Assembly: GCA_000165345.1 (NCBI GenBank)
Contig: CM000436.1
Span: forward strand, 896,001 to 960,000
Length of the DNA: 64,000 nucleotides
Direction: 5' to 3'
In this document: positions 335-63,066 of the stretch, in pieces
Numbering within the stretch: position 1 is the stretch's first letter
How the letters are laid out: the number at the start of each line of letters is the position of its first letter
Translations under genes and position numbers: made by a program
Notes under the pieces: generated by a model
The model's database searches: none
The model's input: only the letters and a program-made list of their open reading frames with translations
Told to the model about the DNA's origin: nothing

Positions 335-1954
335 GTTGCAGAAAACTTTCCGGTAATTGTCTTAAAATATCCAATTACAACTTTTACAGTTGAGTTAACC
401 TTTATAAAAATATAAAAATAAATTAACTCGTCCTTAAATATTAAGTGAAGAAAATAGTTCGTCTGTGATATGCAGTGTTAATAAATATTCTATCCCTTCT
501 TTTTTTTTATTAATAGATATATACGTATCCTCTAATTAGAACTATTAGTATCGTGCTACCCGAACTTTTACCCTTTGATACATAGGTATAAGTCTACCTT
601 CATTTTGTTAATTGTATAATTATTTGTAAATAGTTATATTAATATTATGTTTTTTATACGTATAATTAACTAAGATCGGTACTCTACCACTAACTTATAT
701 TATTATATTTTATACTCAGTTTACGCTGTTCTGTCTATAATTGTATTTAGATAGACACGCCTACCCAACCATTAATTGTGCCGCTAGTATCGAAAAATAA
801 TTTATGCAAACGATTATTAATATGAAAAATTGCAAAGGCCCGCCAGCTTTGCAATTAAACTAAATTGTGTATTTTGACCACTAGCATTGTATCATAATTG
901 TTCGATGACTGCTGTATAATTATATTACGATTAGACGCTATAATTTTAATTCTGGCCCTTGTAAATTGTCGAATTATGAAAAGCAGGTCTCTCCCAACTT
1001 CTTTTAAACTTAAGGTAGCTGGCTATTAGCATTTTCTTGCAAGATTTTACTTGAAAATTACTTTTACTTTAGATTACTTGAGTTTATACCTTTCATTACT
1101 AAATCTATAGCAATTAGTTTTACAATTTAGTATGATGAACTAATTAACATTTTTTTTCCTCAAACATAATTGGAGCTTCAGCATAGATAATAGTATAAAC
1201 ATTGTGTAACTAAAGAATCATTAGTTGTGAGCGTGCAGGACCTAATTCATTATCAATTATATGAATCGCCGCATATAGTCAAAAAATGCCAAAAATAAAG
1301 ATTTAAATAATAACATGCTATTTAATTTTCATGAAAAAAAAAATAAACTTGTATCATAATTACTTATTCACAAGTCAAATAGTTGCATTCAGAACCCTTT
1401 TGAATTTTCAAATAACACAAGATTGCGACGAAACAAGTGATAATGCGTTGTTTCAATATAATTGAATATTCTAACCATTGCTAAGTAGCAAAATTTACCT
1501 TTCTTACGAAAATCGCAGAAAATGTCGAAGGCAATATCAAGTAAAAATACATTACGGTGAAATTGAGAAAAAAATGTTATAATAGATAAATAGATTACTT
1601 ACATTCTTTGCAGGATTTCAGATCCTCTAGGAATCGCAAATTCAAGATTAAACAGTGCCACAGTAAATGTGTCTTATAAGTTTATTGAAAACATAAATTT
1701 GAATTGTTCCTGCTAAAACTGGCAAACTCGAAAAAATAAGCTATTTGATTCATATTTTAGATTAATTTTTCACAATTTTAAATTTAAACGAAATTATAAT
1801 TTGAGGTTCGTTCTAGTTTCACTTAATTTATGAATTCCTAAAATAGCTGACGGTAAATTTTCTTACTATAATGAACTGATTTCTATAAAAAAAAAAAAAA
1901 AAAACTGTATATTATTTTCAATTAAAAAAATAAAAAAAATTTTTTCCTACTATG

Positions 1955-3523: not shown

Positions 3524-4267
3524 ATTATATTAGGCTTCATTATTGGTACATCGACGCAATAATTAGCAAAACTCAAAGTAGATAAAATGAAAGGTCTCTT
3601 TAAAGAAAAAAATCTGAACTAGCGCCAAAATAGGTATTTTAAAATGCAATAAATCAAAGTTTACCCAAAAAGAAAACAAACAAATAAATTAACTATATTA
3701 CTTTATTGAAGTGATAAATTACATTGGGTACTTCATTGTCCCTACTACAAGTGCCCCTCAGCATTCTGATTAGCAAACCATTCGCTAAATGTACGAATAG
3801 TTTTTCAAACAGGAAACAAATGTATTTCGCTCTGATCGCTAACTTTTAATTTCGAACGTCCATTGTCTGTACTTAATATATACATAATTTTTTAATGAAT
3901 TCTTACCATCGGCGCATACAAATTTAACACACTATGCAGCAAAAATGCCTGAAATAACTCTTTTCCTGCATTAACTCGTAACAGTTCAAGAGAAAAAATC
4001 AGTAATTAAAGCAACATGCAGACAAAACTTGTTATATCTCCGAGAATAATACATATTATTGAATATAATTATACTACGATTCAATAAATATTCTGGAAGC
4101 TGTTATAGTTACAAAGTATTATTTAATAATTATTAATATTGAATCAGGAAATTAGCTGGAATTTAATTTCAGGAGATAATTAAGCCAAAAATACATTATT
4201 TAGTAATATAATTTTCTAATTGCTGAGAAGTTCAAAGTTCGAAAAGATAAATAATACTGCAAATATT

Positions 4268-5968: not shown

Positions 5969-7650
5969 AGTTAATATCAAGGGCGGGAATTAATTTAATT
6001 TGATAAAATTATTAAAAGTTTCGATAAAAACCTTTTTAAGCAAATAAATTGCATTGTTAGACATGGCCAATTATTAGAACTAATTTCTTTTACTTTTGTT
6101 AAAAGCCAACGTGATTCTTCCGGTAGGCTTCTTAAGACTTTCCCATGGGTATAAAATACTTCGAATATATTTTCAATTCAATAATGATTCATTTTTTAGT
6201 CTGTTTTAAAGTTATTTAAAACATTTTCCTTTTCGCTTTGTCTATTTCTCCCCTAGATTCTATGTTACTGGAAAGTTTACCAGTCAGTTTTATATATATT
6301 AACTCCACAGAGCTGAGTTCTAAAAATTATAATAGGAAAGTACAGAACTCTTGGTGGAATTGTTACTCTTTTAAAACCACCCAGTTGATTGTTAGCTTGG
6401 AAATTATCTATAAAACCAATGAAGAAATTCATTTGCAAAAAAAAACTTGTGCGCAAGAATGTTAAATTTTGCTCAACTTTATGGAACGGTAGAATTTAAA
6501 TGAGCAATTAATATCAAATAGATATAACTATTGCATAATGCTTTCAAAAAATAACTTCAGTATTTCAATAATTTGCAAGCATGTTTCTAGGTCATTAATC
6601 TACCAATATGGTATATTCCTAAAGAAGATAATATAATTCCAATTCTGAGGAATTTTTTGATACAAATATCGGAAATATTAATATTTAACTGGATACGGAG
6701 TGCACTAACAAGTGTCGTGCAAATTGAACTGGGCTGAAATCATCGTTCTTGTATTTTAACAGTGAATAATACCTTTTTATTATTCAAACTATTTCCGAAT
6801 GTGAATGTAGAAAATGTACTTTCTGAAAGTGACTTAAACTTTAAGTATGTTCCCATTGCTTTTTCGAATTAGAATTTGGTTTTATAAATTGTATTATTTA
6901 CAAAGAATGAAATAAAATGAAAACTTCGTATTGGAAAAACGCCATTCTTATATACACAGTGTATTGATTTCATCGACAAATAATATATCATATTTACCTA
7001 ATTAGAAAAGCTCATAATTCGTTTGTATTACCCTGCAGAAATACTGATATTTCCCAAATATTTATACTGAAAAGGCTAAATAAACGTCTTCTCCAACTTC
7101 AAAATTCTCATTTTTTCAGTTTATGAGATTATTGTATAATTATATTTTCTTTTGAAATATGTACTAAGTCCATTTAATAAGAAGAAGCTAAACAAATAGT
7201 ATTTGTTTTTACTCTGATATTTAATTAATCCCTCTAAGTCCTTATCTTAAAGCGTTAAACTCGATAAATATTTGATTATTTTTTTGTGTTAGACTTTAAG
7301 TTGAATTGCTGAAATTTGTGGCTTATTTCTATATTGAACGAGCTTGAATAGGCCAGACGTAAAATTGAAGAAAATAGTATTAATGCTTTTTTCAAACTCG
7401 TCGGCGCTATTTAAAAATTCGGAATAAAAATAGAAATAATAATCGAATAAATAAATGTATACCCCAAAATTTTAATAAAGTATATATAACTCCAAATAAT
7501 ATCTATAAATTTTAATAATAAATTTATCCAAGCTAGAATATTGTTTTAGTTATTTCTTACCAAAAAAAAAAAATAAATCATAAAGAAATCAAAAAAATAT
7601 GATAAAGCTTTAACATATTCAGCTGTTAGCTATGATTTTATTTAACCTTA

Positions 7651-12274: not shown

Positions 12275-12284
12275 GGGCGCCAAT
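12275..12284. promoter_or_regulatory. GGGCGCCAAT box about 100 bp upstream of WYLE paralog 4.
   Basis: A GGCGCC core in AT-rich upstream DNA. Similar boxes sit upstream of paralog 1 (3622..3630, TTTTGGCGC on the minus strand), paralog 3 (11352..11361, TTTGCGCGCG) and paralog 5 (17686..17718, CCGCCAAT and CGGCGGGC). Confidence 0.35.
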
Positions 12285-12383: not shown

Positions 12384-14352
12384 ATGATGAGCAGTATTAT
12401 TCTAAATATCTTAAAAATACTCATTATATTTGTATTGATTAATATTATTGGATCAGACTCAGGTGCAGTATCGAACCCATCCAAACAACAAAATAAATTT
12501 ACTAAATTAAATCAAGTATTTAAAAGAAAAAATAAACAATATTATGCTATTTCAAAAGATGGCTCTCTCATATTTCCTGCACTAAAGGCAATTTCTTCCA
12601 AGAATATTCCGCTTTTGAAAAATGTTAATAGCTTTAATAATGAATATGACGAAGGTAAGTTATTTATTAGTAGTTTTAGCTGATTTCTTACATTTCATAG
12701 ATATAATTAATAGAAGCCATGTATATATTATTAAAAATGGAGAAGTTCCTGGGTGGGATGGAATGAAAATACCAATACATTATTCCAGTGAGCATTCAAA
12801 ACTAAGATTGAAACCACCTGAAAAAAGCAGGTCAATTTCTATTTTCCCACCTGTTGTAGCCGAGAGGTAAGTAAAAATATTAATAAATAAATTCAAAATT
12901 GTTTATGTTTTTAGATTTATGTTATTTGCTTTAGAAGAATGCCTTCTTCCATCAAAGTTTTTTATTCAGGTTGCTTTTTGTACATTTGATGCAATTTATC
13001 CATTTTTAGAAGGTGTTCCTTCTGGAGAAGTAATGCAAGATATTGTAGGGGCAGCTATGTATTCGGTAAATAAAATAGGAGACGATTTTTCCTTTGATAC
13101 CAAATATTGCCGTAAAGCAATAGCAATGATTCCAGATTCACGTATAAACTTAGAAGTTGATTCAAAATGCAATGATATCTCTCTATGTATGCACCAAGAC
13201 CATTTTCCTCAATTATCACGTTCCCTAAGTGTATTTAATTTGGAACAATTAATAGAGAAATCGTTTATACTTCATGGTCTTGAGTATCAGCTCAGAGTGA
13301 GAAAACTTATTCAATCAATTCTTTGGAAAATAATTAAATCTGCCCATAAATCAAATATAAAAAGAGAGCATATGAATCCCAATAGACTTTTTTCAATAAT
13401 CAGAGCATATGTACTTACATTGTATATTAGACATTCGAGCCTAATTATTCCAGGATGGTATTTAAATAAATTTCCATCGGCAAAAAATTCATTATCATTT
13501 GTATATGTGAAAAATGAAGATTATACTGAACAATCTGCTTATATAAACTACTGTGCAAGAAAATTAAAATGGTGGTTAGATGCATTCCAACCAATTGTAT
13601 CACCGATTTTCCCGAATATGGATACCAAGGATGAGGTTTCAAGATCCGCATGCTTTCAAGCAGGAAGAGCAGGATTTGTAAGTAACGAAGAGTTTGACTT
13701 CTCAAATATGATCGAGGAAGGTACTGAAAGTGTTGATTTGCTGAACCTTCAACTTCCCATTATATTGAAAAAGTCAGAAGAGGAAATAAAGTATATAAGA
13801 AATAATAACTTAAGAAAAGCTCAAGAAAATAGAAAGTGGACTAGTCACTATGAGTCGTATCCATATTCATTAAATGGAAGAATGTTCCAGGATATTATTC
13901 ATGAAAAAGATAAACTTAACTTACAAAATTTAGCTCAAGAAGCCGAATTAAGCCAAGATAAGGACACTTTATTAGATGAAGTTAAAGATCTATTAGGAAG
14001 AAAAAAAAATGGTGATGAGCCATCTATTAAATATGAAAATATTTTTGATACAAATGGCAGAGAAAGTGACAAAAAAACGTCTTTCTCCCCAGTTGAATTT
14101 ATAGCTCAATTAAAGCAAGATAATATTGACTTAGAATCTCACGATGCAAACACGAGCAATATTTCCTATAAACCCAGAAGCATAATTAGAGATCAATTAA
14201 TTCAACCGCAAAGCACTCATTCTTTGAAACAGGGTATTTATGGAAATGCCATGGATGACACAAATTCTGGATTTGAGGAGGATGAAATCGAGGAATTTGA
14301 AGATGAAGATGAGTTTGAGAGTGAAAACGATAACAATTATTCTACAAAGTAA
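12384..14352 (+). CDS. Divergent WYLE-family paralog 4 with three exons: join(12384..12654,12701..12866,12915..14352), about 624 aa.
   Basis: ATG at 12384 with signal peptide MMSSIILNILKILIIFVLINIIG. Donor GTAAGT at 12655 and acceptor catag at 12700 give a 46-nt intron in phase 1. Donor GTAAGT at 12867 and acceptor ttttag at 12914 give a 48-nt intron in phase 2. The splices join three track ORFs into one frame. Exon 3 carries the family core in divergent form (FMLFALEECLLPSKFFIQ...GEVMQDIVGAAMYS). The C-terminus is acidic (EEDEIEEFEDEDEFESEND), unlike the basic tails of its paralogs. Confidence 0.6.
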
Positions 14353-15524: not shown

Positions 15525-15755
15525 TCTAACAGTGATGAAAGCTAGTTTGGCAAATTGCTCTCTACATACAATAGTTTTTCCTGATATTTTCATCTTAAAA
15601 AAATTTGTATGTCAAGTAATTCAAATAAATGCATAATATTTAACGGAACAGTCTGATTATTGCCTTGGGATCATAGAAAAAATTATATTTATTATGAGTT
15701 TTAATAATCTATAATTTAATAAGATTATAGAGTGTTTATGGATTATCTATTTTTC

Positions 15756-17372: not shown

Positions 17373-18378
17373 CTCTTCAAGATTCACATAAATAAATTAA
17401 CAATTTCAAATAGGAGATCTTTATCAGAAGCTTAAGATTATTTTTCTTTTGTTGTCAGCAACTTAAATACTCCTCGGATTGCATTCTTTTATTATTACTC
17501 CTTGTTAGACGGGAAAAACTAACAATTGAATCTCTTCTGGCCAATGATTAGTTAACAAAATAGTCTTCACGTAATAGTGCAGTCCCAGGCGTTGGATTCC
17601 TAAAGTAGTACTAGTATTCACAAAAAAAATCTATATTCGTTATCGACGTTACCTGCAATAACTGCAAAAAAAATCATGTCTTTACCGCCAATTTGTGCGT
17701 ACTAATTTGTCGGCGGGCTGTGCAGCCGGAATAAAGTCGAAATTTAAACATAAAATTAAAGTACTAAAGTATAAAAATAAAATACTCAGATATAAATATT
17801 GATTCCGGAATCGCAACCTTCCTCAAAAAATAAGTCAGTAGAGGGAGCGAAATCATCATTGTATTTTATCGCTTAAGTTAAAAGCTATGCAAAAAGAGCT
17901 AAAATCCAAATATTGTCGGCTCATTATTACACAACCTGAAAACTCAAATATAACTCCATATTTCTCTCGAAATAATATTTATAAAGCTAATACTTCAAGA
18001 CTCATGACTATTGAAATCTTGTAATTCCACAATATAAGCGATATCCATGCTCCGAACTTCAATTAAAATCATATAAACTAGGCTTAAGGTTATCTCAGCG
18101 ATTGAATATGACAATATCACAAACTCCTCTGGATTCCGGGTAGGTTCAAACCCAAAACAGCAGAAAGGAGATTCAATCAATACATGCAAGCATCATTGAA
18201 TAACCAAAGCCCAGATATTCTCCAAGATTTGATGATTTCTCTAAAGCAAATTTATTCTTGTCTCCGATATTCTTAAAAGGGATAGACAAATACATGGCGC
18301 CGATATTGTTGAGTTATATAGCAGGATTTCAAAACCACGGAAATATGATAAAGCGAAATCGTGAAAATATATTGCCTT

Positions 18379-20031
18379 TCAATCTTGTTTAGTATTTTGA
18401 CTGGTTTCCCCTTTTGAATTCGAGTTGCTGTCCATTGTTGGAGTATTGCGTTTACTGCTCTCTTTTTGCTTATTTTCTAAGACCTTCTCTTCGAAGTTAT
18501 TTTTGATTTTCTCGGCAACTTTTTTGAAATGTTCTTCGTCTGAAATATACAATTTTCTAAGGTTTTTGATGGCAGACGCCCCTCTTTCGCCTCTGGTTTC
18601 GGCGCTTGCTGATGTTTTGGGATTGTTTTCTTGTAGCCATACCAACATCTTTGCGATTTGTCGGATCTCTTTGATTTCTGAATCTTGAAGTTCTTCCTTG
18701 GGTTTTATGCCTTCATTGGATTCTACACCCTTTTTATCTACATTGCTTCCTTCGGAATTTATATTATTTTGACTAAATTGTGCAGTTTCTTTATTTTTCT
18801 CAGCTAATTTTCTTCTCTTAGCCTCTTCCAATATGGCAGCAATAATAACTTTTCTTCGTTCTTTTTTCTTTAGGGACGCCTCACTGTCTTGAAGTTCTTC
18901 AGGTTTGGCTTCCAACTGATTACTATCTTCTATTTTGTTCTCTATTTTATCTTCCATTCTATCTTCTACAGAAAGTTGTTGAATTCTTTTTTCAATTTTT
19001 AGCAGCTCAATATTTTGATTGTGTAAACTTTCTTTATTTCTTTCTATATTTTCCAGAATATTTCTATACTCTTTTGTTTTTCTCTCTTTATTCCTAAGTT
19101 TCTGCGCACGCATGCTTAGATTTGCATTTTCTAACTTTAATTTACCTATTTTTTGTATCAAATTCTTTTTAATTTCAACGCACTCAGGGAAGTTCTTTTC
19201 TTCATATTCAAGGCCTACACTAGATTCTATTAAATTTTTGGATTCAGTTACAGTTTCATCAATTTCAATATTTAATTGTATAGCATTAATCAACTTCCTT
19301 CCTGCAAGAATCTCTAATGCTGCAATCTGTTGGTTTGGAGTAATTAGAATAACGGTGTCATCTTCGTCTTCCAAATCATCAGGAGCATTAACGTTATCAA
19401 TTACTTTTTTTAAGGTCGCGGAGCTGGGCTGGCTATCTGATTTCTGATAAACAATCTTGATTCCAGATGCAAGTATCTTTTTTCTTGTAACTTCATCAAA
19501 GGGAGATATATCTCCAGAGTCAGTAGCTTCTATATCATGCTGCCTTAGTAAATTCAATTTATCTAACAATCTATTTTCTTCTATTATTTTGTTTATTTCA
19601 AATTCTTCTTGTTCTTGATCTTCAAGACCTTTTTGTCCTTTAACTGTGGCAATATCCCCACCAAAAGCAAATAATCCACTATATTTTAATTCAATATCGG
19701 ATAGCCACAATTTGACAAATGTATTGTTTTTAATATTGTATTCCTTTATAATCTCTGGATGATTGTAAAAGTTACCTTTATTTTCAACGGAAATCTCTAC
19801 TTCTCTTTGAATATTTCCAATAACTTTATTATCAAATTTAGTAAACTTTTTTTTCTTTGAATTATATTCTAAAATAAAGTTAATTTAATTTGTTAAATTG
19901 CCTTATTTCTTACCTCTCGTTGCTTGTACTGCTTGATAAAAACTTTTTATATCAACTTTACTGCACTCACTTTCTTGAAAAAGCAATAAAATTAATATAA
20001 TACATATTGAAAAAAACCTCGTTCTAGACAT
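18379..20031 (-). CDS. Secreted acidic coiled-coil protein with two exons: complement(join(18379..19868,19914..20031)), about 535 aa.
   Basis: Exon 1 reads ATG...MSRTRFFSICIILILLLFQESEC (signal peptide) and ends in phase 1. Donor GTAAGA at 19913, a TTAAC branch point and acceptor ttttag ending at 19869 give a 45-nt intron. Exon 2 continues in frame into the 443-aa track ORF (..KLWLSDIELKYSG..), which has long E/K-rich heptad regions. Confidence 0.55.
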
Positions 20032-20259
20032 TCGAAACCTATATTTGCTTCTATTCCTCACTAATATGTTCATTTCAAAATTTTTTATTACAAGTCTGAT
20101 CTAATAATTTTGATTCCGAAGGCGGGTAATTTTGGCTTATTTCTTCACCTGAAAAAAAACTAGTGAATTTAAACAAACTCGTTATTTTGTGCGATTAGAG
20201 AAAATTTATGGTTAAATGCAATCTTATAACAAAATATTATAATTTTTATCTATCAAATT

Positions 20260-22155
20260 CTATCTGTTCTTTCTTTTTGGTAGACTTGATTTTGGCACAC
20301 GAATTTTTTTTACATTATTTTGAGGAGCGCATATTAAGTCCCCAATTTTGACACATGCAGTTTGCTCACAATTTTTTTTGCCACTGCTCTCAAATATCTC
20401 AGAATAACATTCATCGGAGCCTTTATTTCTGTCTAATACGAGAGTTTCGCTAGACGCTTCACTGCGTAGCATGTCCTTGGTATTAAGTAATTTAGGTTTT
20501 ATAGGACTTCCAAGTGTTTTATTACTCCTTTTTGGCATTTTGTGCTGAATAATTTGCAAAAATTGAGTATCCCTAGTTATTGGAATATTGCCATCTTCAG
20601 AGTTTTCGCTGGGAATGTCAAATAGCTCACTATAACCTTCAGAGTCTCTTTTTTTTAGTGTTTTTTTCAATTTAAGAGTTAAGCTAGAATTATAACTTGC
20701 GCCTTCCTTCAAAAGATTGTTTTGCATGCTAGAAGTAATTGAGGGAAGAGTGGGATTCAATGAAATACTTTCATCAATCTCAAATTGAAGGTCATCATAT
20801 CCATACTTAAGATATTCTTTACTGTATTTTTTTGGCAAAGTTTTATTTTTATCTTTACAACCTATAGGAATAGTGAGGGAATTTTGAAATCTATCAAGCC
20901 TATTTTTGGGTTCAGGACTCAATTTTGGACTTGAGAAGTCTTCTTTTTCAAGTATCTTTTTATGCTTTGTTTTTCCCTTGACATTTTTATTATCTTTCTT
21001 TTTCGTATTAAGTTTCATATTTTTCTCATCAGAAAATTTTTTAGTTTCATCCTTTTTCAGATCCTCAAAATTGAAGTATTCTATTTGCTCAGGAGTAGAT
21101 AATAATTCATTTTCTTTTCTTTTATTATTTGAATGCTGCTCTCCTTCATAAGAAAAATTTTCTGCATACATTATTTCTCCTGATGGGATTTCGTTTACTA
21201 GTATAAGTTTAGAATTTAATTGTTTTTCTTGGATTGACAAATCTTCGGGATCTTTTACAGAATCTATATTTTCATCTGGATAGTGAAGCTCATGCATTTC
21301 TGGTTTTTTATAGGTGTTTTCAAACTCAGCTACAACCGATCTTCCTTCTTCATCCAGTTTATTATATAATTCTTCTTTTATTGGACTGGATTTAATTAGA
21401 TGCCTTGCAGAGCCCTTCCAGTTTGGTTGATTTATTTGTTCGGTTTCTAAAACTCTAAGCAGAAAAAAAAAATCAACGTCAAGAAAATCAGCATATCAAT
21501 AGAAACTTACTTTTTCTGGTCACTTGTAGTAGCTTTATTAAATGAACTTTCTACATTATACTCGTCAAACAAATCTAGATCTTTCATCAAATTTTCGGCT
21601 TTTAAATCAGTATTCAATAACTGAGAGATATTTTTCTCTGCAGTTAGGCTCTTATGATCAAATTTAGTTGGGTACCCTAATACTGGAGTTGATTCCTGAC
21701 TACTTTCGGTATTATTGTAATCGAATACAATATCTTTTATTTCTTTTATTTTTTCTTTAATTTCTTCAAGTTTAAGTTCAATATTATCCCCCCCTATTTC
21801 AACCTTTGGAAGATTAAATTCTTCCAGATTCTTAGCCGTTTTAGGCCTATTATAAAGTGGATAAACTTTTAGAAAATAGTCTTACTTACCTAGTAGGCGT
21901 TCTAATTCCACTTATTTGTTTAGGGGTATTTTGAAAGAGCCCTATCCTACCTTGTTTCTCGTTAACCTTCTCTATATCGCCTTCACTCATTTCAATATTA
22001 TTCTTCGAGACTATTTCAATAAAACCTGGGATCTTATTTTTGATGATCTCAGCATCATCTAAGTAACTTGATTCACTGATTACAAATCTAAAGAGATAAA
22101 GTGAAACCAACAAGAAATATAAACAATTTATTATTTTTAAACTGCCTCCAGCCAT
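20260..22155 (-). CDS. Hypothetical secreted K/E/S-rich protein with three exons: complement(join(20260..21454,21511..21846,21890..22155)), about 598 aa (an upstream in-frame ATG at 22185 is the alternative start).
   Basis: The signal peptide is MAGGSLKIINCLYFLLVSLYLF. Exon 1 ends ..ACT AG with donor GTAAGT; a 43-nt intron (21889..21847) ends at ..ataatag, in phase 2. Exon 2 is an open 111-codon frame ending ..CAGAAAAA with donor GTAAGT; a 56-nt intron (21510..21455) ends at ..ctgcttag, in phase 2. Exon 3 runs in frame into the 345-aa track ORF. All phases close with canonical GT-AG introns. Confidence 0.55.
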
Positions 22156-22388
22156 CTCTATACAAAACAAATGATAAAGCCCCAAATATCTTTTTATACT
22201 ATATTTTAGATTGTTTTTAAGTCCATTAAGAAATATAAACTAATATTAAGGATAAAAACAGATAATCGACCATAATAGCACTTGTAGCAACAAAAGAGCT
22301 ATTTTTTATAGCGCTAGCCTATGCAGTTTTCCAAATATTTGCTTCAAGTTATTGCAAAGCAAGGAAAATCTATAATTTCTACATTTTT

Positions 22389-22412
22389 TCCCACATTAAG
22401 CGCGCCACAGAC
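22389..22412. promoter_or_regulatory. AGCGCGCC plus TTTTGGCGG boxes in the divergent promoter between the 22155 minus-strand gene and the 22640 gene.
   Basis: A GC island in an AT-rich intergenic spacer, with the same core as the other boxes. Confidence 0.4.
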
Positions 22413-22639
22413 TTTTGGCGGTTTTGTGGTTATTTTTTTTAGATTTATTGCTCTTCTATATGGGGTTGTTAATAATATTAACCGGCCAAATTTTTATTTT
22501 TTTTTGGACGGGGGCACAAAGCTAATTCTTTGACAAATAATAATATTCTGACCAATTTCATGCAGGTGGGCATGCAATGCATTGTTATTATTATTGCAGT
22601 AGATAAATTAATAATTCTGAATAAATATATTCGAAAATA

Positions 22640-23392: not shown

Positions 23393-23423
23393 ATGCGCGT
23401 GCCGAAATAATTCAACTTAAAAA

Positions 23424-23998
23424 ATGAATAATTATTCAACTTTAGAGAAATTACCTCAAATCACTATTAATGCAGGCCCATTAGATAATTTATGGCCAGA
23501 GAGACTAAAAGAGGAGCTGAAGGTATTAATAGGATATGTGGCATTATTAAAAGATTCAGGAGAAGAGTGGTTCAATATTAAGCCACTTCAAGATGGAACA
23601 AAGTAAGGTTAACACATTTTTCATATTGTCTAATTTATTAGTTATAGATGGGAAGGAGTTTGTTGGTACACTCACAACTTAAAAAGATACGAATTTGCAT
23701 TTCGCTTTAATGTAAGTTGAAAAAACATAAATATATCTGAGTTCAAATTTTTGGAAATTTTAACGGGTTTTAGATACCTGAGAAGTATCCTATTACTCCA
23801 TTCGAAGTTGAAATTCCAGAGTTGGATGGGAAAACTTTGAAAATGTATAGAGGCGGAAAGATTTGTATGGATACTCATTTCATTCCTCTCTGGCTAAGAA
23901 ATTGCCCAAAATTTGGTATTGTTCATATTCTAGCTTTCGGCCTGGCGCCATGGCTTGCTGCAGAAGTTCCATTTTTGGTATCATCATGTAAAATTTAA
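23424..23998 (+). CDS. UFC1: Ubiquitin-fold modifier-conjugating enzyme 1 (UFC1), three exons: join(23424..23602,23648..23711,23774..23998), 155 aa.
   Basis: The spliced product aligns end to end with human UFC1: [27 protein letters not shown] vs [29 protein letters not shown]; [22 protein letters not shown] vs [22 protein letters not shown]; [52 protein letters not shown] vs [52 protein letters not shown] (catalytic Cys in GGKIC). The introns are 45 nt (GTAAGG..ttatag, CTAAT branch) and 62 nt (GTAAGT..ttttag, TTAAC branch), and the phases close. Confidence 0.75.
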
Positions 23999-24166: not shown

Positions 24167-24175
24167 TTTTGGCGC
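24167..24175. promoter_or_regulatory. TTTTGGCGC box about 240 bp upstream of the Patched-like gene.
   Basis: It matches the E2F-like TTTSGCGC pattern. Confidence 0.35.
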
Positions 24176-29020: not shown

Positions 29021-30343
29021 TTATACACTTACCTTTTTATCTTCTAACTCGTCAAAAACGTAAATTCCATTTAGGTTATAAACTCCCGATACTAGTGCCT
29101 GGCAATCCAGCTCTAATGTAACTGTTTCCCCCGCTTTTAGCTCTTCTAAATATAAACGGTCATTTCCTAATATTATTATTGGTAGAAGCTGGTCAAAATC
29201 CAATCTAATGCTCATGCCTTTTTGATCAATGCTTAAGTTATTCGTAACATATAAAAAAACTTTAAATTCTTCCTGCCTATTATTTACTGATGGTAATTCA
29301 GCTTTGAGAATAATTGCGTTTTTCTCTTTATTCAATTTGTTTTGATCGCATAGAATTGGTAGACCAATTTTATAAGAGTCAAGCCATCCATCTCCATATG
29401 ATACTGAAACCCATCCAATTCTAAGCTTAAGTTCTAGAACCTCTCTACTACTCTTTCCTAAATTATTGTATTCTCTACTGCAAGACGTAAATTTAAATAT
29501 TTTGTTGTATTTACATCTTGGTTGAATATATAAAGGCTCGTTATGCTTATTTTTTAAATTCACATCTTCCAGTTCAAATATTAGTTCAGGTAGTTTTTTT
29601 ATATTTATAGGTTCAAGCTTCATACTACTAAGGGTAATACTTTGGTGAGAAACATTTTCTAGTGAAACTTCAACAAAAATGGTCTTCTTATCCATAGTAT
29701 CTTCATCTAAATTGTATAATCGGTGAGAAATATTGAAAGGAGAAAGCACTGCAAATTTGTATGACTTCTTTTGTGTTAATCTAGCCTCATTTGATGTGAA
29801 AAATAATTGGCAAGTTAAACTATATAGCCCAACCTCGTCTACCCTTTCTTTAACTACAATATCCAATGAATCTCCAATATCTATATCGGAATAGTTATCC
29901 TCATTATTGTATAGTATGTGGCGTTTCTTTGTACCTACAAGTTCTACCTAAAAGAAATAAATTATAATCTTTCAATACAATGTAACCTACTTTTAGAACT
30001 ACCCCATTTGCCTTAATAATACTCGAGTTGGTGATACTAATAAACGCATGAAAAGACTCACCGCAATATAAACGGCTTAAGAAGTGAAATAAATAGTTTA
30101 TTTGTAAAATTATTCATTAAATTGATAAATTAGACGCTCTTTCATACTTACCACTGAGTTGTTGGCAATAAAAGAGGAAACATATTATCAACACACAAAA
30201 CTTCTTCTTCTCCATTTTCCAAATTACACTATTGTTGTTAGAAGTTAAATTAACAAATTAAACTCAAGTATTTTTAAAAAACTCACCGGAAGTAAACTTA
30301 ATGTAGATACCTGTGAATCAATTGGAGAATGTGAAAGTGACAT
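29021..30343 (-). CDS. Hypothetical conserved-looking protein with four exons: complement(join(29021..29947,29991..30036,30152..30228,30287..30343)), about 368 aa. The 5' exons are provisional.
   Basis: The 281-aa track ORF begins at a TTG, and its frame continues 27 codons upstream to acceptor cttttag (intron 29990..29948, 43 nt, donor GTAGGT). Further upstream, exons are bounded by GTAAGT (30151) ..115 nt.. tttattag, and by GTGAGT (30286) ..58 nt with a CTAAC branch.. caatag. All phases close from the ATG at 30343 (MSLSHSPIDSQVSTLSLLP|CNLENGEEEVLCVDNMFPLLLPTTQ|C ITNSSIIKANGVVLK|VELVGTKKRHILYNNE...). The function is unknown; the protein has beta-rich alternating hydrophobicity. Confidence 0.45.
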
Positions 30344-30685
30344 AACTTTTAAGCTTAAAACTTCATTCGTTCCCGAAGTCATAACTCAAACTACTTATCT
30401 CAATAGCTGTGTTTTTAATGGTTGGCAAATGAAATTAAATACATTAATGAAAGGGTCCTTAATAAATATTTACTTTGTACTCACTTTGTTCACACTAATT
30501 ATTCAAGATACAACCATTATTACTGATGGCGCCAATACTAAGAATTCTTATAATAAGTTAACTTATAATTGGCCAAACAAGTAACCAGGAAATACAGCAA
30601 AAATCACTAGCATTATGAAGTGCATTTATTATGTGTTTTCATCGTGCGTTCAAACTACCTAGCCATTTTTTTCCACCATAATTTA

Positions 30686-30719
30686 ATGATGGCGGTAATT
30701 AACTACGTATTAATTACCG
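30686..30719. promoter_or_regulatory. GATGGCGG box joined to a 27-bp near-perfect palindrome CGGTAATTAA-CTACGTA-TTAATTACCG, about 170-200 bp upstream of Rcl1.
   Basis: The 10-bp arms are perfect inverted repeats and the centre contains the palindrome TACGTA. A GGCGG motif immediately precedes it. Confidence 0.4.
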
Positions 30720-32201: not shown

Positions 32202-32442
32202 AATTCTAATTAAACGATATGAAACTTCTCTCTGTCAAAAATATATTTGATTTTATAAATGTTAATTCGATTTAATTATTAAAAATTTTTACTAGGTTTG
32301 AAAATCTTATCTCTTTATATTTTTGATTAATAGCTTCTTTCTTAATACATGCATGCACGCAATCATTATTTCCTGTGTTAGGCAGTTCGCATATGGTAAA
32401 ATAATCGAATTATATAAATATTTAAATTCTTTTAGATTATTT

Positions 32443-33125: not shown

Positions 33126-33145
33126 TGCGCCAATTACAGTAATTG
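33126..33145. promoter_or_regulatory. GTGCGCCAAT box followed by the palindrome CAATTACAGTAATTG, about 200 bp upstream of ACC.
   Basis: A GCGCC core next to a 7-bp-arm inverted repeat; the TAATTAC element recurs 25 bp downstream. Confidence 0.35.
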
Positions 33146-42256: not shown

Positions 42257-42266
42257 TTTTGGCGGG
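42257..42266. promoter_or_regulatory. TTTTGGCGGG box in the 270-bp bidirectional promoter shared by Dim1 (minus strand) and the 42389 gene.
   Basis: The same TTTGGCGG core recurs at 22404, 48268, 63053 and 43951 (reverse strand). Confidence 0.4.
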
Positions 42267-43293: not shown

Positions 43294-43822
43294 TTATATT
43301 GAGTCTGTTATTTTTACAGAGCAAGGCATACTCCAAGGGTGATACTCATTATTGTCCGATATTTTTCCATTATATTTAATAATCTATTATGATAGATTAT
43401 GCGATAAATTAATTTATACGAATTAATGATAATTTACGCAACTTACCTTTGGAACGTTCTCAAAAATTTCAAAGTTTTCAAAACTTTCTTCTTTATCGTC
43501 ATTATTAGAATCTTTTTCTATATTCCGCATGAAGTTAATTTTGATGTTATAATATTGCAATTTTTACTAACTTACGACTTGAGTTATAAATTTTCTCAAC
43601 AGTTTTAATATGTTTTTTCATTACATCCTTTGCATCTTTTTTTACACCATCTCTAAATTGTCTATCCTTCAACTTCTTTTTCTCTATACTTTTGTCTCTT
43701 CTCTCCTTCTTTCTCTTTTGGAATCCATTAACAAATGATTCTTTTTTTTTCATGTTAAAAGTGATCAAAGTTCCCTTTCGGCCGTGTTTGGTCAAAATAG
43801 ACTTGGAATATTTATCCAACAT
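43294..43822 (-). CDS. Hypothetical small basic protein with four exons: complement(join(43294..43383,43447..43517,43576..43822)), about 135 aa.
   Basis: The 91-aa track ORF runs through a GTAAGT donor at 43575. Splicing uses introns of 58 nt (..aatatag) and 63 nt (GTAAGT at 43446 .. ataatag) with closed phases. The product is MLDKYSKSILTKHGRKGTLITFNMKKKESFVNGFQKRKKERRDKSIEKKKLKDRQFRDGVKK...|QKDSNNDDKEESFENFEIFENVPK|IIKYNGKISDNNEYHPWSMPCSVKITDSI. The basic N-terminus suggests a nucleolar or RNA-binding role, but that is a guess. Confidence 0.4.
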
Positions 43823-43950: not shown

Positions 43951-43963
43951 TTTCCCGCCAAAA
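43951..43963. promoter_or_regulatory. Canonical E2F-type site TTTCCCGCCAAAA (reverse strand TTTTGGCGGGAAA) in the divergent promoter between the 43822 minus-strand gene and the 44179 gene.
   Basis: It matches the textbook E2F consensus TTTSSCGC exactly and is flanked by A/T runs. Confidence 0.45.
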
Positions 43964-45504: not shown

Positions 45505-46932
45505 TTAAATAGGCTGCAGCCCAAGAGCAACATTTACACTTTTACGAATTGGATTATTGGGCTCAAGATCAGCAATAGAAATCACAGTTGAGCAATGAGG
45601 GCAATATCCCTTGATTGTGTTTGGCGAAATCCCTGATGCAGCATCCATATGATTTCTAATAAAGTTAATAATGCATTCCTGACAGTATGTTTCACCACAG
45701 CATGGAGTCAAAACTGCGTATCTGAAGAGCCTCGCACATATAGGACAAGTTAATGAATCTCGGACAAGACTTGTGTCTTCCTTTGATTTACCCATATGTT
45801 TTCCAATAGTGTCTTCAACCGTTCTAGTCAGGAAAGCCGTACTTGAAAGTTGTTTTGCATCCTTTAGCACAGCAAACGTACCATCGGGGAGGCAATAAAC
45901 TTCTGAGTAGAGTCTACCTTCTTCGTCAAAATTAATAGCTCTTAGAAAACTTCTAGGGATTCCTGTAGCAGGTCTAATTTTTTTTTGAGATACTCCTTCG
46001 TTAACTTTGGGACAGACACGAATATGGTGCCCCCTTTCACCGCACATATGACAAATATAATCTGCAGGAACGTCTGTTGATGTATTGGCCATTGCATTCT
46101 TGTAATTATAATTAGCCGACACAGACGAAGGTCCAAAGTTTGCATTGTAACTTTGCCCACCAAAATAGTTATTTGATGATCCAGTATTAAGAGGGCCTGT
46201 TCCAATAGCCCCCAGTTTTTTGTATGGTTCACTTCTAAATTGGCTGGACGCAGAAAAATTTGTACCTGTTGTATTTCCAGCTCCATATCTGCTTCCTGTT
46301 GCAGTTACAGACTTTGGATATCCTCTTTGGTTAAACTGTTCTAACATTTCGCTTCTTTGAGCTGCTGTCTGTTTGAATTTCTCACCATGCTGTTGCATTA
46401 CTAACAAAATAGCTGCATCTTCCGACGAACTATTTTTTGAATTATTCGATGGATTTGTACTATTCAAAACTGAGTTATGATCATCATCCTTACTTTCTCC
46501 TACTTTTGTAAAATTACCGCTATTAGGGGCTAAATCAGTGGTGGATGGAGGAGATAATATGGTTTGTTCTCGCATGGATATGTTTGATGGAGCAGTGCTT
46601 GAAGAAGCGGAATTTGTTGCTTGAGATACAGTTGAAGGCTTGCTCTTTATTTTTGAATTTGCTGCTTCTAAAAGAGGTTTTGCTAAGTCCTTAGGGAGCC
46701 TGACCACATTTAAATATATTCCCTCTTTTAGAATTTCATAATCTGAAAGGTATACATTCGAAACACGGCCATTCTTATCGCTTTGTGTAGCTAAGATATC
46801 CATATCCTCTCCAATATCTAAAATTTCCCTGAGCTTTGACCTAACATGTGAAACTAAGGCAGGAAATTCATGTGTAAGATCCTTAAATTTCTTTTCACTT
46901 TTAAACTTATAATAAATTTTGTTGTTGGCCAT
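45505..46932 (-). CDS. MPE1: Mpe1/RBBP6-like pre-mRNA 3'-end processing E3 ligase, with DWNN domain, CCHC zinc knuckle and RING/U-box-like finger (475 aa).
   Basis: The N-terminal IYYKFKSEKKFKDLTHEFPALVSHVRSKLREIL fits the ubiquitin-like DWNN domain. The CCHC knuckle is CHMCGERGHHIRVCP. The C-terminal finger is CPICARLFRYAVLTPCCGETYCQECI...CPHC. The sequence line around 46921 prints only 59 bases, so my coordinates there may be off by 1; the track coordinates are used. Confidence 0.8.
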   Translation of the reverse strand: MANNKIYYKFKSEKKFKDLTHEFPALVSHVRSKLREILDIGEDMDILATQSDKNGRVSNVYLSDYEILKEGIYLNVVRLPKDLAKPLLEAANSKIKSKPSTVSQATNSASSSTAPSNISMREQTILSPPSTTDLAPNSGNFTKVGESKDDDHNSVLNSTNPSNNSKNSSSEDAAILLVMQQHGEKFKQTAAQRSEMLEQFNQRGYPKSVTATGSRYGAGNTTGTNFSASSQFRSEPYKKLGAIGTGPLNTGSSNNYFGGQSYNANFGPSSVSANYNYKNAMANTSTDVPADYICHMCGERGHHIRVCPKVNEGVSQKKIRPATGIPRSFLRAINFDEEGRLYSEVYCLPDGTFAVLKDAKQLSSTAFLTRTVEDTIGKHMGKSKEDTSLVRDSLTCPICARLFRYAVLTPCCGETYCQECIINFIRNHMDAASGISPNTIKGYCPHCSTVISIADLEPNNPIRKSVNVALGLQPI

Positions 46933-47093: not shown

Positions 47094-47109
47094 GCGCCAT
47101 TAATGGCGC
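47094..47109. promoter_or_regulatory. Perfect 16-bp palindrome GCGCCATTAATGGCGC, made of two inverted E2F-like GGCGCC half-sites, about 165 bp upstream of the Mpe1/RBBP6 start.
   Basis: Read directly: the reverse complement equals the forward sequence. It is an isolated GC island in >80% AT intergenic DNA. Confidence 0.5.
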
Positions 47110-47294
47110 CCAGTTATCATTCATAGCTTTCAAGCATGCAAATGCTACATAAAAGAAAAGAATATTTTAGATGAAGTTGAAATAATATTAATAATACTAT
47201 TAAATTAATAAGTTAAGTATCTGATTATAACAACGTACAATTGAACTCCCCGATTATGAAACAGTTAACTTTATATGCTAAGGAAAAATTTGAG

Positions 47295-48107: not shown

Positions 48108-48587
48108 TTTGTTTGGTTAAAAAAGAATATGAAAATATATTAGAAAAATAACAACATGAAAATTATGTTAAGAACTATTAAATATTTAGGTGTTCCACCG
48201 GTTTCTTAATAAAATTAAGTTTTTTTTTATGCAGTTTTTCTGGAGACATTGCAAAAAATCATGTGCAGTTTGGCGGTTGCAGGGTTATCGGCCCAATTTG
48301 CATGCACTGTGATCAAACAAAAAAAAAAAAAAATCAACGCATTGTAAGAAAAAAAAGTAAATTAACTAATTACGGGTACTATAGTATTTTAGAGTGACAT
48401 TGTTGGCAATGCAGCCATAATTCTATCCACACAGTTGCAGAAAGAAATTTAAAATTAAACTTTAATTAACTGACGCAATTCTTGCATATTTATAATAGTA
48501 GCGTAATAGATGAAATTTATAAGTTTTCCTCAAAAAGGGTTTAGAAGAGTCAAAGAAGAACGGAATCATATCGTTCTGATGCTAAGC

Positions 48588-49961: not shown

Positions 49962-50328
49962 AAGATTAAGTTAACTTTTCCATATAAAGATTTATTCCTA
50001 TTAATTTAGTACAAATTATCAACGAGAGTTTATTTCGTTAGTTATTATTTTTTCTTTTACTTTATTATTTTTTTTAGAGACGTTGTTAACTATTAGCTCA
50101 TCTATCTTAGACCCCGCTCACAATCTGTCTATTAAGTACCGACAAATTACTTGCCGCTTCATCATTTCCAGATCCAGAGTCAATCAGGGAATAAATTAAA
50201 AATAAGTAAGTTGATACAGGAGGAGTTACAAATGCAGTGAGATATAAAATTTCATTAAACGATTGAACTTAGAAAAGTACGGATTTACAAACCACATGTA
50301 AAAATGATAATCTATTTCTACCTAAATA

Positions 50329-51636: not shown

Positions 51637-52169
51637 ATTAAGCAGTCGTTTTGGAGCAGCACCAATGTTTATCTCAATCGAGAGTGAAGTCCAGAGGCAG
51701 CAAGCAACTGGAGGCCATTAAGTATATGAATCTATATCTAATAGATTATTTGATCAAAATGTAAGTTATTAAATGTGGATAAAACAGAAGGGAAGAGAGA
51801 AAGGAAGTGCTATATAAGAACTTTGGTTGAATCTTTAGCCAAATAAGCGTGCTTGTTAACAGCGATTATCACAAATTTGACAGTATTTACGTAGTTGGAA
51901 ACCTGATTTCTGAAATTCTAAATTGAGGGATTTTTTTTTTCTTACTAGAGTTCAGATCTTTTAAAGTAAATAAAATTCTGATACTTCAGATAGAATATGT
52001 GATTATTAATAAATACACTACAACTTGGTCAAATTACATGTATATTAGCCGTTCCTCGCTTCAAACGACTCAATTTAAACAAGACACACTCTCGTCAACT
52101 CCCCGTGCAGACCTCTTGAAATAATAATAAAAATAATAAAGGAATGAAGAAGTTAAATATAACTGATAT

Positions 52170-52496
52170 CTATGTTAATATGTTGCATAGATATATAGTT
52201 TGTTCAGTCGCTTCTTCTAAACTATTGGGGCCGATGCTGAAATTTGAAATGAGAAAGAGCTTCTTGTTAGTTGTCTCCCAGGATAAATCCAAGCCTGAAA
52301 AGGTGACAAACTGCTCAAATGGACCTCCTTTGATTGATTGTATTACCAATTCAAAAAGTATTAAACATTCAAAGATATTAATAGGAAACCGCTCTTCTAA
52401 CGGCTTAATATCAAAGGTATGTCCACTCTCCTTGTAACTTCCACTCAGAGAGGAAGTAAGCAAAGTAGCTCTATGTCTGTACTTAAACGTCTCCAA
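52170..52496 (-). CDS. Possible small protein gene (108 aa); the strand assignment is tentative.
   Basis: Overlapping ORFs occupy both strands. The minus-strand ORF (METFKYRHRATLL...IKGGPFEQFVTFSGLD...) is favoured because two E2F-like GGCGCC boxes lie 120-145 bp upstream of its ATG and the region is GC-enriched like coding DNA. No homology recognised. Confidence 0.3.
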   Translation of the reverse strand: METFKYRHRATLLTSSLSGSYKESGHTFDIKPLEERFPINIFECLILFELVIQSIKGGPFEQFVTFSGLDLSWETTNKKLFLISNFSIGPNSLEEATEQTIYLCNILT

Positions 52497-52617
52497 ACGC
52501 TAACCGATCAATTCAGCTGTCAGAAATTAGAGCGACTTCGCTAACAAGCTCTTTTGTGCCTGTCAAGTGCTTTCTATTAAATCCAGAAGCCTCTAATTCA
52601 AGGATACATATACGTAC

Positions 52618-52640
52618 AAATGGCGCCTGTATTATGGCGC
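52618..52640. promoter_or_regulatory. Two E2F-like boxes (AAATGGCGCC and TATGGCGC) upstream of the small ORF at 52496.
   Basis: The motif is the same as at 47094 and 61189. Confidence 0.4.
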
Positions 52641-59177: not shown

Positions 59178-59698
59178 TCACACATAATATTATTGCGTAA
59201 TTGAGAATAATCTTAATGCTAGCTAGTTTCGATTTAAGGTGACTTTTCATATAATAAAAATATTACAAATATTATGGCTCCCGCCTTATGCCATTTAATT
59301 GTTTCACTGAAAAATTTTTAACCGGTATAGGAAATGTAGGCGGCAAAAGTCTAGTAGACTGTATTTTATAGTAAATAATAGCTTAAGTTACAAAAATACT
59401 ATAAATTACGTATTTTGGGTTATTGAACTATAAAAATAATTAGGTTATGTACTACTGATAATTATGGTAGATTGTAAATGGGGGGAGGGGAAAAGGAGGG
59501 TTAAATAAAATTAAATTTGTGACGTTTACAAGAGCAGTAAATTTTACAAGAACTGGGAAAATAAATTAGCTCTAAATTCTGAGAAGAAATAATCCAACTA
59601 TTTAGAGAGTATTCAAGAGTGTCTATATAGTAAAAATGTTTTTCTCTTCGATGCCATTTGATATGGGTGGAGGATTTGATGGAAGAATGGGTGGAAGG

Positions 59699-61188: not shown

Positions 61189-61229
61189 CTGGCGCCCATA
61201 GAAAAGTATATATAGCAATGGCGCCAATA
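61189..61229. promoter_or_regulatory. Two E2F-like boxes (CTGGCGCCCA and AATGGCGCCAAT) 180-215 bp upstream of the Bet1-like gene.
   Basis: Two GGCGCC cores 30 bp apart in AT-rich intergenic DNA. Confidence 0.45.
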
Positions 61230-63052: not shown

Positions 63053-63066
63053 TTTGGCGGTAAAAA
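63053..63066. promoter_or_regulatory. ATTTGGCGGTAAAA box about 200 bp upstream of the Sec14-like gene.
   Basis: Same TTTGGCGG core. The similar box GTTTGGCGGTTGC at 48268..48280 lies upstream of the 48107 gene, AAGGCGGGTAATTTT at 20119..20133 upstream of the 20031 gene, and GTAGGCGGCAAAAG at 59337..59350 upstream of DnaJ. Confidence 0.35.

Follow-up and report, generated by a model that had tools for sequence, protein, structure and literature searches.

Two E2F-like motifs have been described upstream of Cryptosporidium parvum genes: motif 3 (DTTGSCGCCH), with over-representation in 114 clusters, and motif 4 (TTTGGCGGGAAV), with over-representation in 47 (Oberstaller et al. 2013, PMC3734150). 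The motif is spread throughout upstream regions, the clusters that bear it peak at every time point, and an unusual reliance of C. parvum on E2F was suggested (PMC3734150). An E2F-like motif had been seen earlier on chromosome 6 (Bankier et al. 2003, as cited in PMC3734150 and PMC12246861), and among 200 expression clusters, whatever the time point of their peak, 161 were also reported to have the motif upstream (PMC4117751). It is the top motif upstream of lncRNAs (Li et al. 2021) and dominates the peaks of sporozoite ATAC-seq, of which bidirectional promoters make up more than half (Xiao et al. 2025, bioRxiv 10.1101/2025.01.17.633476). Over-represented upstream motifs are common to all Cryptosporidium genomes (Liu et al. 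2016, PMC5146892).

Among apicomplexans, Cryptosporidium alone has kept E2F/DP (PMC3734150, PMC12246861). The E2F genes of C. parvum are cgd1_1560 and cgd6_1430 and its DP genes are cgd7_3650 and cgd8_1850 (PMC12246861, PMC3734150); the DNA analyzed here encodes no E2F or DP protein. A retinoblastoma orthologue was not found in apicomplexans (PMC3734150). On protein-binding microarrays the AP2 domains of C. parvum bound TGCAT, CACACA and G-box motifs, and the E2F motif was omitted from the figure of AP2-bound motifs as one recognised by non-AP2 proteins (PMC4117751). A 2025 review stated that validation is lacking for most regulatory components, and in the literature searched to mid-2026 we found no experiment on direct E2F/DP binding to these boxes in Cryptosporidium. 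Because E2F-like boxes are the apparent main promoter signal in the only apicomplexan genus with E2F/DP, they are central to understanding, and possibly to disrupting, gene expression in the parasite; this centrality is the field's stated view (PMC3734150, PMC4117751, PMC12246861, bioRxiv 10.1101/2025.01.17.633476).

We analyzed a stretch of DNA of 64,000 nucleotides, called the window here. Nine of the proteins that the window encodes match C. parvum entries exactly (Iowa II EAK895xx, ATCC CPATCC_0042xx, CPHLJ_8g3730), and the window is therefore part of C. parvum chromosome 8. A sequence-only reading of the same DNA had already named Cryptosporidium as the source and mentioned an E2F-like motif from this genus; both were right, the motif being the one published as motifs 3 and 4 (PMC3734150). 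The gene calls of that reading (WYLE, Bet1-like t-SNARE, CRAL-TRIO/Sec14, an Rcl1 resembling RNA 3'-phosphate cyclase, DIM1, ACC and RBBP6-like) also hold. The gene map, based on open reading frames, was refined using locus annotation tables and short exons found by translation, and the following genes were added or corrected.

12384..14352: gene
18379..20031: gene
20260..22155: gene
23424..23998: UFC1
29021..30382: TRAPPC13-like gene
about 43300..43822: Nop25

A box was defined as TGGCG[C/G] or GGCG[C/G][C/G], with either strand counted. The sites found are listed below by window position; no strand is assigned to a site.

839..845: CCCGCCA box upstream of a signal-peptide gene that leaves the window at its left end, about 508 nt from the gene's ATG (near 334)
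3622..3627: TTTTGGCGCT box (minus-strand reading) upstream of a WYLE-family gene, 101 nt from its ATG 3523
5982..5987: GGGCGGGAAT box upstream of a WYLE-like gene, 46 nt from its annotated ATG 5938
12276..12282: GGGCGCCAAT box, divergent intergenic region, 105 nt upstream of annotated ATG 12384
17685..17717: box pair CCGCCA and GGCGGG, 315-342 nt 5' of ATG 17372 of a WYLE-family gene
18295..18301: TGGCGCC box, a positional outlier that lies 84 nt past the stop of gene 18379..20031, at 926 nt from ATG 17372
20121..20126: AAGGCGGGTAA box, 92 nt 5' of annotated ATG 20031
22401..22421: box pair CGCGCCA and TTTTGGCGGTTT in the middle of divergent promoter 22156-22639, with 222-263 nt to either ATG
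24170..24175: TTTTGGCGCTTG box, 236 nt 5' of ATG 24408 of a sterol-sensing/Patched-like gene
30527..30534: ATGGCGCCAAT box in the divergent TRAPPC13-like / Rcl1-like promoter, 148 nt from inferred ATG 30382 and 355 nt from ATG 30885
30690..30695: ATGGCGGTAAT box, 193 nt 5' of the Rcl1-like ATG 30885
33127..33132: AATTGGCGCAC box (minus-strand reading) upstream of acetyl-CoA carboxylase, 217 nt from ATG 33346
42260..42266: TTTTGGCGGGAAT box in the middle of the divergent promoter of DIM1 and a 279-aa gene, 145 and 126 nt from the ATGs
43951..43963: TTTCCCGCCAAAA box in the divergent promoter of Nop25 and a 401-aa gene, 135 and 222 nt from the ATGs
47094..47110: double box, GCGCCA at 47094-47099 and TGGCGCC at 47104-47110, 164-175 nt 5' of ATG 46932 of the minus-strand Mpe1/RBBP6-like gene 45505..46932
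48271..48276: GTTTGGCGGTTG box, 166 nt 5' of ATG 48107 of a 270-aa gene
52621..52640: box pair TGGCGCC and TGGCGC, 171-185 nt 3' of the stop of a 2123-aa gene and about 1 kb 5' of ATG 51636
59280..59285 and 59339..59344: CCCGCC and GGCGGC boxes in the divergent promoter of the 2123-aa gene and a DnaJ gene
61190..61226: box pair TGGCGCC and TGGCGCCA, 29 bp apart, 184-213 nt 5' of ATG 61406 of the t-SNARE (Bet1-like)
63055..63060: ATTTGGCGGTAAAA box, 203 nt 5' of ATG 62854 of a Sec14/CRAL-TRIO gene

The boxes are concentrated in intergenic DNA. There are 26 of them in 15.1 kb of intergenic DNA, where dinucleotide shuffles gave 3.4±1.7 (maximum 11 in 500 shuffles), and they are depleted from genes, with 4 in 48.9 kb against 10.8±3.0 expected. 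GGCGCC occurred 9 times in the whole window versus 1.26 expected, and none of 100 dinucleotide-preserving shuffles reached 9. An unbiased k-mer scan of the DNA outside long open reading frames returned GCGCCA as its top 6-mer, with 17 copies versus 2.3 expected and only 4 in the 44 kb of open reading frames. The same scan gave GGCGCC (8 versus 0.54 expected), CCCGCC (7 versus 0.76) and CCGCCA (8 versus 1.8), the last two with no copy in open reading frames. Chance, or a compositional artefact of GC-containing words in AT-rich DNA, might be invoked on the ground that the individual words are short (6-8 nt). However, 26 intergenic boxes were observed where 500 shuffles peaked at 11, the bias is the opposite one in genes, the boxes are placed non-randomly relative to ATGs, and the enrichment recurs independently in seven other species with GC contents of 22 to 50%. 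Refuted by the shuffles, the k-mer scan and the seven-species recurrence, this explanation has practically no probability left.

Half of the intergenic G/C runs of at least five (26 of 52) are boxes, compared with 4 of 122 genic runs. To call the boxes the dominant GC islands of the promoters, as had been done, is therefore fair, but they are not the only ones. The promoters themselves had been taken to be more than 80% AT, which is too high: up to 100 nt from the boxes the DNA is 65-76% AT, and intergenic DNA overall is 72% AT.

When the boxes were aligned and oriented, the consensus was wTTGGCG[C/G][C/G]AA. Across 33 oriented instances GGCG is invariant and is followed by C/G and then by C/G/T, and the flanks prefer T at -1 to -4 and A at +6 and +7. 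The cores are GGCGCC in 14 instances, GGCGGG in 7, GGCGGT in 5 and GGCGCT in 4. The classical E2F/DP consensus TTTSSCGC, which had been put forward as the consensus of these sites, is not itself enriched in the window (4 versus 2.6 expected) and is excluded as the enriched word by that count. Only about 3 of the 26 boxes match it, the T-run often being shortened to wT; because most boxes differ from TTTSSCGC in the T-run or the last base, we call them E2F-like and not canonical.

The boxes lie on the promoter sides of genes. The sequence-only reading had spotted at least 17 upstream regions with such sites, and we counted 18 intergenic regions with at least one box. All 6 divergent regions, 12 of the 17 tandem regions and none of the 6 convergent regions bear boxes; that is, 18 of 23 promoter-side regions have at least one and five have none. 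Nineteen of the 26 boxes lie 90-260 nt from an ATG, compared with 28% of promoter-side background positions (binomial p=2e-6), and the median distance from box to ATG is 188 nt versus 304 nt for the background. For four boxes the nearest annotated ATG is 500-1000 nt away, and one such set is explained by a conserved non-coding unit that is described below. No orientation bias relative to the nearest gene was found, the asymmetric boxes pointing both ways. The sequence shows that the boxes are promoter-side, orientation-independent DNA elements that are under selection and avoided in coding DNA.

The genes with boxes include those for WYLE secreted proteins, the t-SNARE (Bet1-like), a Sec14-like protein, the Rcl1-like protein, ACC, DIM1, DnaJ and the Mpe1/RBBP6-like protein. 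This distribution bears on whether the boxes mark only replication or S-phase genes, as a classical cell-cycle E2F regulon would. The motif is over-represented upstream of DNA replication and glycolysis genes (PMC12246861), which would suit such a regulon, but boxes at 18 of 23 promoter-side regions, those of the WYLE, SNARE, Sec14, ACC, DnaJ, DIM1 and Rcl1-like genes included, and motif-bearing clusters that peak at all time points (PMC3734150) are not what it predicts. Restriction to replication or cell-cycle targets is refuted for the window by the box distribution, and we regard a cell-cycle regulon as highly improbable. The sequence-only reading had anticipated both points, in noting targets beyond replication genes and in proposing a general or bidirectional promoter element, and the ATAC-seq literature agrees with it (bioRxiv 10.1101/2025.01.17.633476).

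The boxes have the core and flanks of the E2F-like family, are over-represented, come from a Cryptosporidium genome and lie on promoter sides, which are the four features by which membership of the family was judged. They are local copies of the published Cryptosporidium E2F-like motif (motifs 3 and 4). This identification is correct and already known: the reading of the boxes, including their general or bidirectional character, was already in print, and the phenomenon is therefore not new.

One site had been reported as a perfect palindrome, and we confirmed GCGCCATTAATGGCGC at 47094-47109. The other quoted sites are also exact, namely TTTCCCGCCAAAA at 43951-43963 and the boxes at 61190-61226 and 52621-52640. 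GCGCCATTAATGGCGC is a 16-bp palindrome in the promoter of the Mpe1/RBBP6-like gene, whose protein has a zinc knuckle plus RING, and it is composed of two boxes in inverted orientation, 12 bp apart centre to centre. Perfect palindromes of at least 16 bp are not enriched in the window (3 versus 2.5 expected; GC-rich ones, 1 versus 0.21). In four species both GC cores of the double box are unchanged while the spacer varies, from ttaa to ttta in C. meleagridis, ctaa in C. ubiquitum and caaa in C. canis; in C. meleagridis the perfect symmetry is lost in this way, with no compensating change. The orthologous promoter of C. felis has one TGGCGCC only, and C. ryanae and C. bovis have TGGCGCCyTAAGGCGG, that is, two non-complementary boxes 10 bp apart. 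The double box at 47094-47110 is thus kept double in six species, with a centre spacing of 12 bp in four of them and 10 bp in C. ryanae and C. bovis. Because the cores are kept while the spacer varies and the symmetry is broken, selection acts on the boxes and not on the palindrome. The palindrome was accordingly rejected as a feature in its own right: such palindromes are not enriched, C. meleagridis breaks the symmetry, and C. felis, C. ryanae and C. bovis lack it. The special meaning that had been given to the palindrome does not stand. A conserved TTTGCATGC lies at 47134-47142, about 30 nt from the double box.

The palindrome might instead work through structure, as a DNA cruciform or as an RNA hairpin in the 5' UTR, and not through protein-binding boxes. 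GCGCCATTAATGGCGC could form a hairpin with a 6-bp GC stem and a 4-nt loop (-7.4 kcal/mol, z=-3.5 versus shuffles), and the cores that would form the stem are those kept in four species. But the broken, uncompensated symmetry in C. meleagridis, the single box in C. felis and the non-complementary boxes in C. ryanae and C. bovis would not preserve such a structure, the majority of boxes are single, and perfect palindromes are not enriched in the window. A hairpin is also not a general feature because other box pairs, such as 52621/52635 and 61190/61219, are direct repeats. With just a 6-bp stem at -7.4 kcal/mol that is not general to the other boxes, the hairpin or cruciform reading was rejected, and a structural role for the palindrome is very unlikely.

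The boxes had been said to occur often as pairs or palindromes. Five close pairs (within 30 bp) do exist, which exceeds the 1.3 expected under a uniform null (P=0.006). However, when the sites were confined to their preferred zone of 90-350 nt, 3.2 pairs were expected and the excess was not significant (P=0.20), and palindromes, as described above, number 3 versus 2.5 expected. Fixed spacing or significant close pairing was therefore rejected, the spacing differing among species and sites and the position-aware P being 0.20.

The pair at 52621-52640 adjoins a block of DNA that we describe separately. The block extends from 51637 to about 52640 on the minus strand, between the box pair 52621/52635 and the next ATG, and is conserved to a degree typical of genes: its identity to C. 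canis is 62%, compared with 23-53% for other intergenic DNA and 63-81% for genes, and a four-species profile detects it in C. felis with E=2.7e-47. The conservation starts directly after the boxes, which form the upstream edge of the block. There is no conserved open reading frame and no codon periodicity of substitutions in it, and indels of 1-2 nt are many; a missed protein gene that would explain boxes about 1 kb from an ATG was excluded on account of the lack of a conserved frame and of periodicity and the frameshifting indels. Comparison with known RNAs gave no Rfam family, no tRNA and no permutation of CCTAAA resembling a telomerase template, and the block was excluded as a known RNA by these searches. 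In consensus folding the sense strand folded better, with z down to -5 versus column shuffles, and in one segment 8 of 41 predicted pairs had compensatory changes, the covariation term being only -0.36 kcal/mol; this folding and covariation signal is suggestive only. The simplest reading of the block is as the long and conserved leader of the 435-aa gene or as a lincRNA that starts at the box cluster. Clusters of at least two boxes (47094-47110; 52621-52640) might form a distinct composite class in which two E2F/DP dimers fix the start of a transcription unit, with a conserved non-coding RNA or leader of roughly 1 kb directly downstream at 52621-52640, but we hold this idea only tentatively and think it rather unlikely.

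Conservation was examined at the syntenic loci around the Mpe1/RBBP6-like orthologue in seven other species, C. meleagridis, C. ubiquitum, C. canis, C. felis, C. ryanae, C. bovis and C. serpentis. The order of genes along these loci is conserved. Although intergenic GC content ranges from 22% to 50%, boxes in promoter-side intergenic DNA exceed the expectation from each species' own shuffles in 7 of 7 species, as follows.

C. meleagridis: 8 boxes observed, 1.0 expected
C. ubiquitum: 7 observed, 0.6 expected
C. canis: 12 observed, 3.4 expected
C. felis: 16 observed, 9.1 expected
C. ryanae: 11 observed, 4.4 expected
C. bovis: 3 observed, 0.1 expected
C. serpentis: 3 observed, 0.2 expected

Box positions match in six orthologous promoters, across up to eight species. 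The divergent promoter of Nop25 and the 401-aa gene keeps TTTGGCGG[G/C]AA in 8 of 8 species. In the DIM1 / 279-aa promoter a box is found at the same position in seven species: four of them have TTCCCGCCAAA, C. ryanae and C. bovis have a GGCGCC-type box, and C. serpentis has TGGCGCT. Upstream of the 270-aa gene a box occurs at about the same distance in 7 of 7 species, with GGCGGG and GGCGCC forms interchanging, and the cluster at 52621-52640 that follows the 2123-aa gene has at least two boxes in 6 of 6 species, at spacings of 14, 16, 27 bp or more. The sites are under purifying selection, as seen from the invariant cores and varying flanks and spacer at the Mpe1/RBBP6-like promoter, from the boxes retained in the six promoters and from the enrichment in all species examined. 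These base-level cross-species footprints for six chromosome 8 promoters are the contribution of the present analysis, a modest addition to what was known.

E2F proteins have a dual specificity, for sites of the TTTGGCGC and GGCGGGAA types. That GGCGGG-type and GGCGCC-type boxes take each other's place at matching positions is an argument for a single factor family as the reader of both. It is possible that the boxes are real promoter elements with a different reader, either an ApiAP2 with GCC-box-like specificity or a zinc-finger or Myb protein that is still uncharacterised. GCCGCC is bound by the AP2/ERF domains of plants, and the GGCGG[C/G/T] variants, 13 of the 33 oriented instances, resemble the reverse complement of this GCC box. 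The searched literature contained no report of direct E2F binding, and the expression of the E2F genes is out of step with many motif-bearing clusters (PMC3734150), both of which would also suit another reader. On the other hand, the C. parvum AP2 domains that were assayed bind TGCAT, CACACA and G-box motifs, the E2F motif having been assigned to non-AP2 proteins (PMC4117751); the GGCGCC/GGCGGG swap at orthologous positions fits the dual specificity of E2F better than a GCC-box reader; and the motif is abundant in the sole apicomplexan genus that keeps E2F/DP (PMC3734150, PMC12246861). We therefore consider a different reader unlikely.

Taken together, the boxes are probably instances of an E2F-like cis-element, read in all likelihood by E2F/DP at promoters. 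Their enrichment, their exclusion from genes and from convergent spacers, their positional bias and their genus-wide conservation are observed. We infer E2F/DP as the binding factor, from the literature or by analogy, because the motif resembles E2F sites, because two E2F and two DP genes are retained, and because the tested AP2 domains bind other motifs (PMC4117751); activation is the putative effect, on the same kind of grounds. That E2F/DP would open promoters is suggested by the dominance of the E2F motif in ATAC-seq peaks (bioRxiv 10.1101/2025.01.17.633476). The element has GGCG[C/G][C/G] as its core, flanked by T-rich DNA on the 5' side and A-rich DNA on the 3' side, and comes in a palindromic form, TGGCGCCA, and an asymmetric form, TTTGGCGGGAA. 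Such sites are short and orientation-independent, and they are placed some 100-350 nt 5' of start codons, either alone or loosely clustered with others of their kind. They mark most promoters of the compact genome and, within the window, all of the divergent ones. In the mechanism that we propose, the most likely readers, the E2F/DP winged-helix heterodimers of the parasite, may bind there and establish or occupy an accessible promoter region, from which transcription would proceed in one or both directions. GCGCCATTAATGGCGC is two inverted E2F-like boxes in the Mpe1/RBBP6-like promoter and nothing more.

How do the boxes compare with other known sites? Among upstream motifs of the same parasite, the ApiAP2 motifs TGCATGCA (AP2_1) and the G-box G[T/C]GGGG are, like the boxes, short and over-represented upstream, but they differ from the boxes in sequence and in having demonstrated binding proteins (protein-binding microarray, PMC4117751). 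Unlike the boxes, TGCATGC is not excluded from coding DNA in the window. A comparison of the C. parvum motif with the E2F sites of metazoans and plants was drawn previously (PMC3734150). The metazoan and plant E2F/DP sites (TTTSSCGC, the palindromic TTTCGCGCCAAA type, and the plant TTTCCCGCC and TTTGGCGGG) have a CG-centred GC core with a T-rich flank, occur in palindromic and asymmetric variants and lie close to promoters, all of which is seen here as well, and the plant-type word TTTCCCGCC occurs verbatim at 43951. The differences are that strict TTTSSCGC is not enriched here, the T-run often being wT, and that most genes are targeted and not a cell-cycle set. Inverted E2F sites in pairs are known from the E2 early promoter of adenovirus and from the promoters of cellular genes such as DHFR and E2F1. 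A close inverted pair of E2F type is likewise present at 47094-47110, but neither a fixed spacing nor cooperativity is evident here, the spacing at the conserved pairs being variable (12 and 10 bp at one, 14, 16 and 27 bp at the other). The closest match is with motifs 3 (DTTGSCGCCH / TGGCGCCA) and 4 (TTTGGCGGGAAV) of C. parvum, with which the boxes share species, consensus, upstream location, breadth of targets and the link to bidirectional promoters. Nothing essential differs between the two, and what is added here to the published motifs is the exact sites on chromosome 8, their conservation box by box, and the interchange of the two forms.

Boxes, the E2F-like sites TGGCG[C/G] or GGCG[C/G][C/G] on either strand, were absent from 5 of the 23 promoter-side spacers (divergent plus tandem intergenic regions). 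Four of these five were short and tandem, 31-367 bp in length:

15594-15755, short tandem spacer, no box
23393-23423, short tandem spacer, no box
32202-32352, short tandem spacer, no box
49962-50328, short tandem spacer, no box; promoter of the amino-acid transporter gene

Xiao et al. 2025 (bioRxiv 10.1101/2025.01.17.633476) have proposed transcription that is shared or polycistronic, and the short tandem spacers would fit transcription of this kind driven by the box-bearing promoter upstream. We compared the transporter promoter with its orthologous regions and found that the box was missing in C. parvum, C. meleagridis and C. ubiquitum and present in C. canis, C. felis and C. ryanae, a distribution that suggests turnover of the site at this promoter within the genus Cryptosporidium.

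Boxes were also found inside genes, where two perfect copies of TGGCGCCA occurred:

10804-10811, TGGCGCCA box, within an annotated WYLE-family coding sequence, 497 nt in
23943-23950, TGGCGCCA box, within UFC1 near its 3' end, with the ATG of the next gene 465 nt downstream

These intragenic boxes may function as promoters, whether internal or shared, or they may simply be tolerated sites. A GCGCGCG word lies at 11355-11361, 54 nt 5' of the WYLE-family ATG at 11301; being a [C/G]GCGC[G/C]-type variant, it falls outside the box definition used and was therefore not counted.

The pair of E2F-like boxes at 52621-52640 is followed immediately downstream by a block of non-coding DNA of about 1 kb (51637-52640, sense on the minus strand), which is flanked by a 2123-aa gene and a 435-aa gene. 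The block is conserved at a gene-like level, with 62% identity to C. canis and a detectable counterpart in C. felis (E=2.7e-47). It contained no conserved ORF and no codon periodicity, and a search of it against Rfam returned no match. Consensus folding hints at structure in the sense strand, and the block probably represents either a lincRNA or a long, conserved 5' leader.

Across the window, splice-donor-like words (AGGTAAG, GTAAGAA and the complements CTTACC and ACTTAC) were enriched outside long ORFs. A map built from ORFs alone misses introns or upstream exons of several genes: UFC1, 12384..14352, 18379..20031, 20260..22155, Nop25 and the TRAPPC13-like gene. In the non-ORF DNA of the whole window, the known ApiAP2 motif TGCATGC(A) was likewise over-represented (GCATGCA, 9 vs 1.95 expected). 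The promoter of the Mpe1/RBBP6-like gene carries a double box, the two inverted boxes at 47094-47110; at a distance of about 30 nt from it, at 47134-47142, lies TTTGCATGC, which is invariant in 4 species. Long A/T tracts were in strong excess in the same non-ORF DNA (A8/T8, 93 vs 26 expected), in agreement with the poly-T motif of ATAC-seq peaks (bioRxiv 10.1101/2025.01.17.633476).
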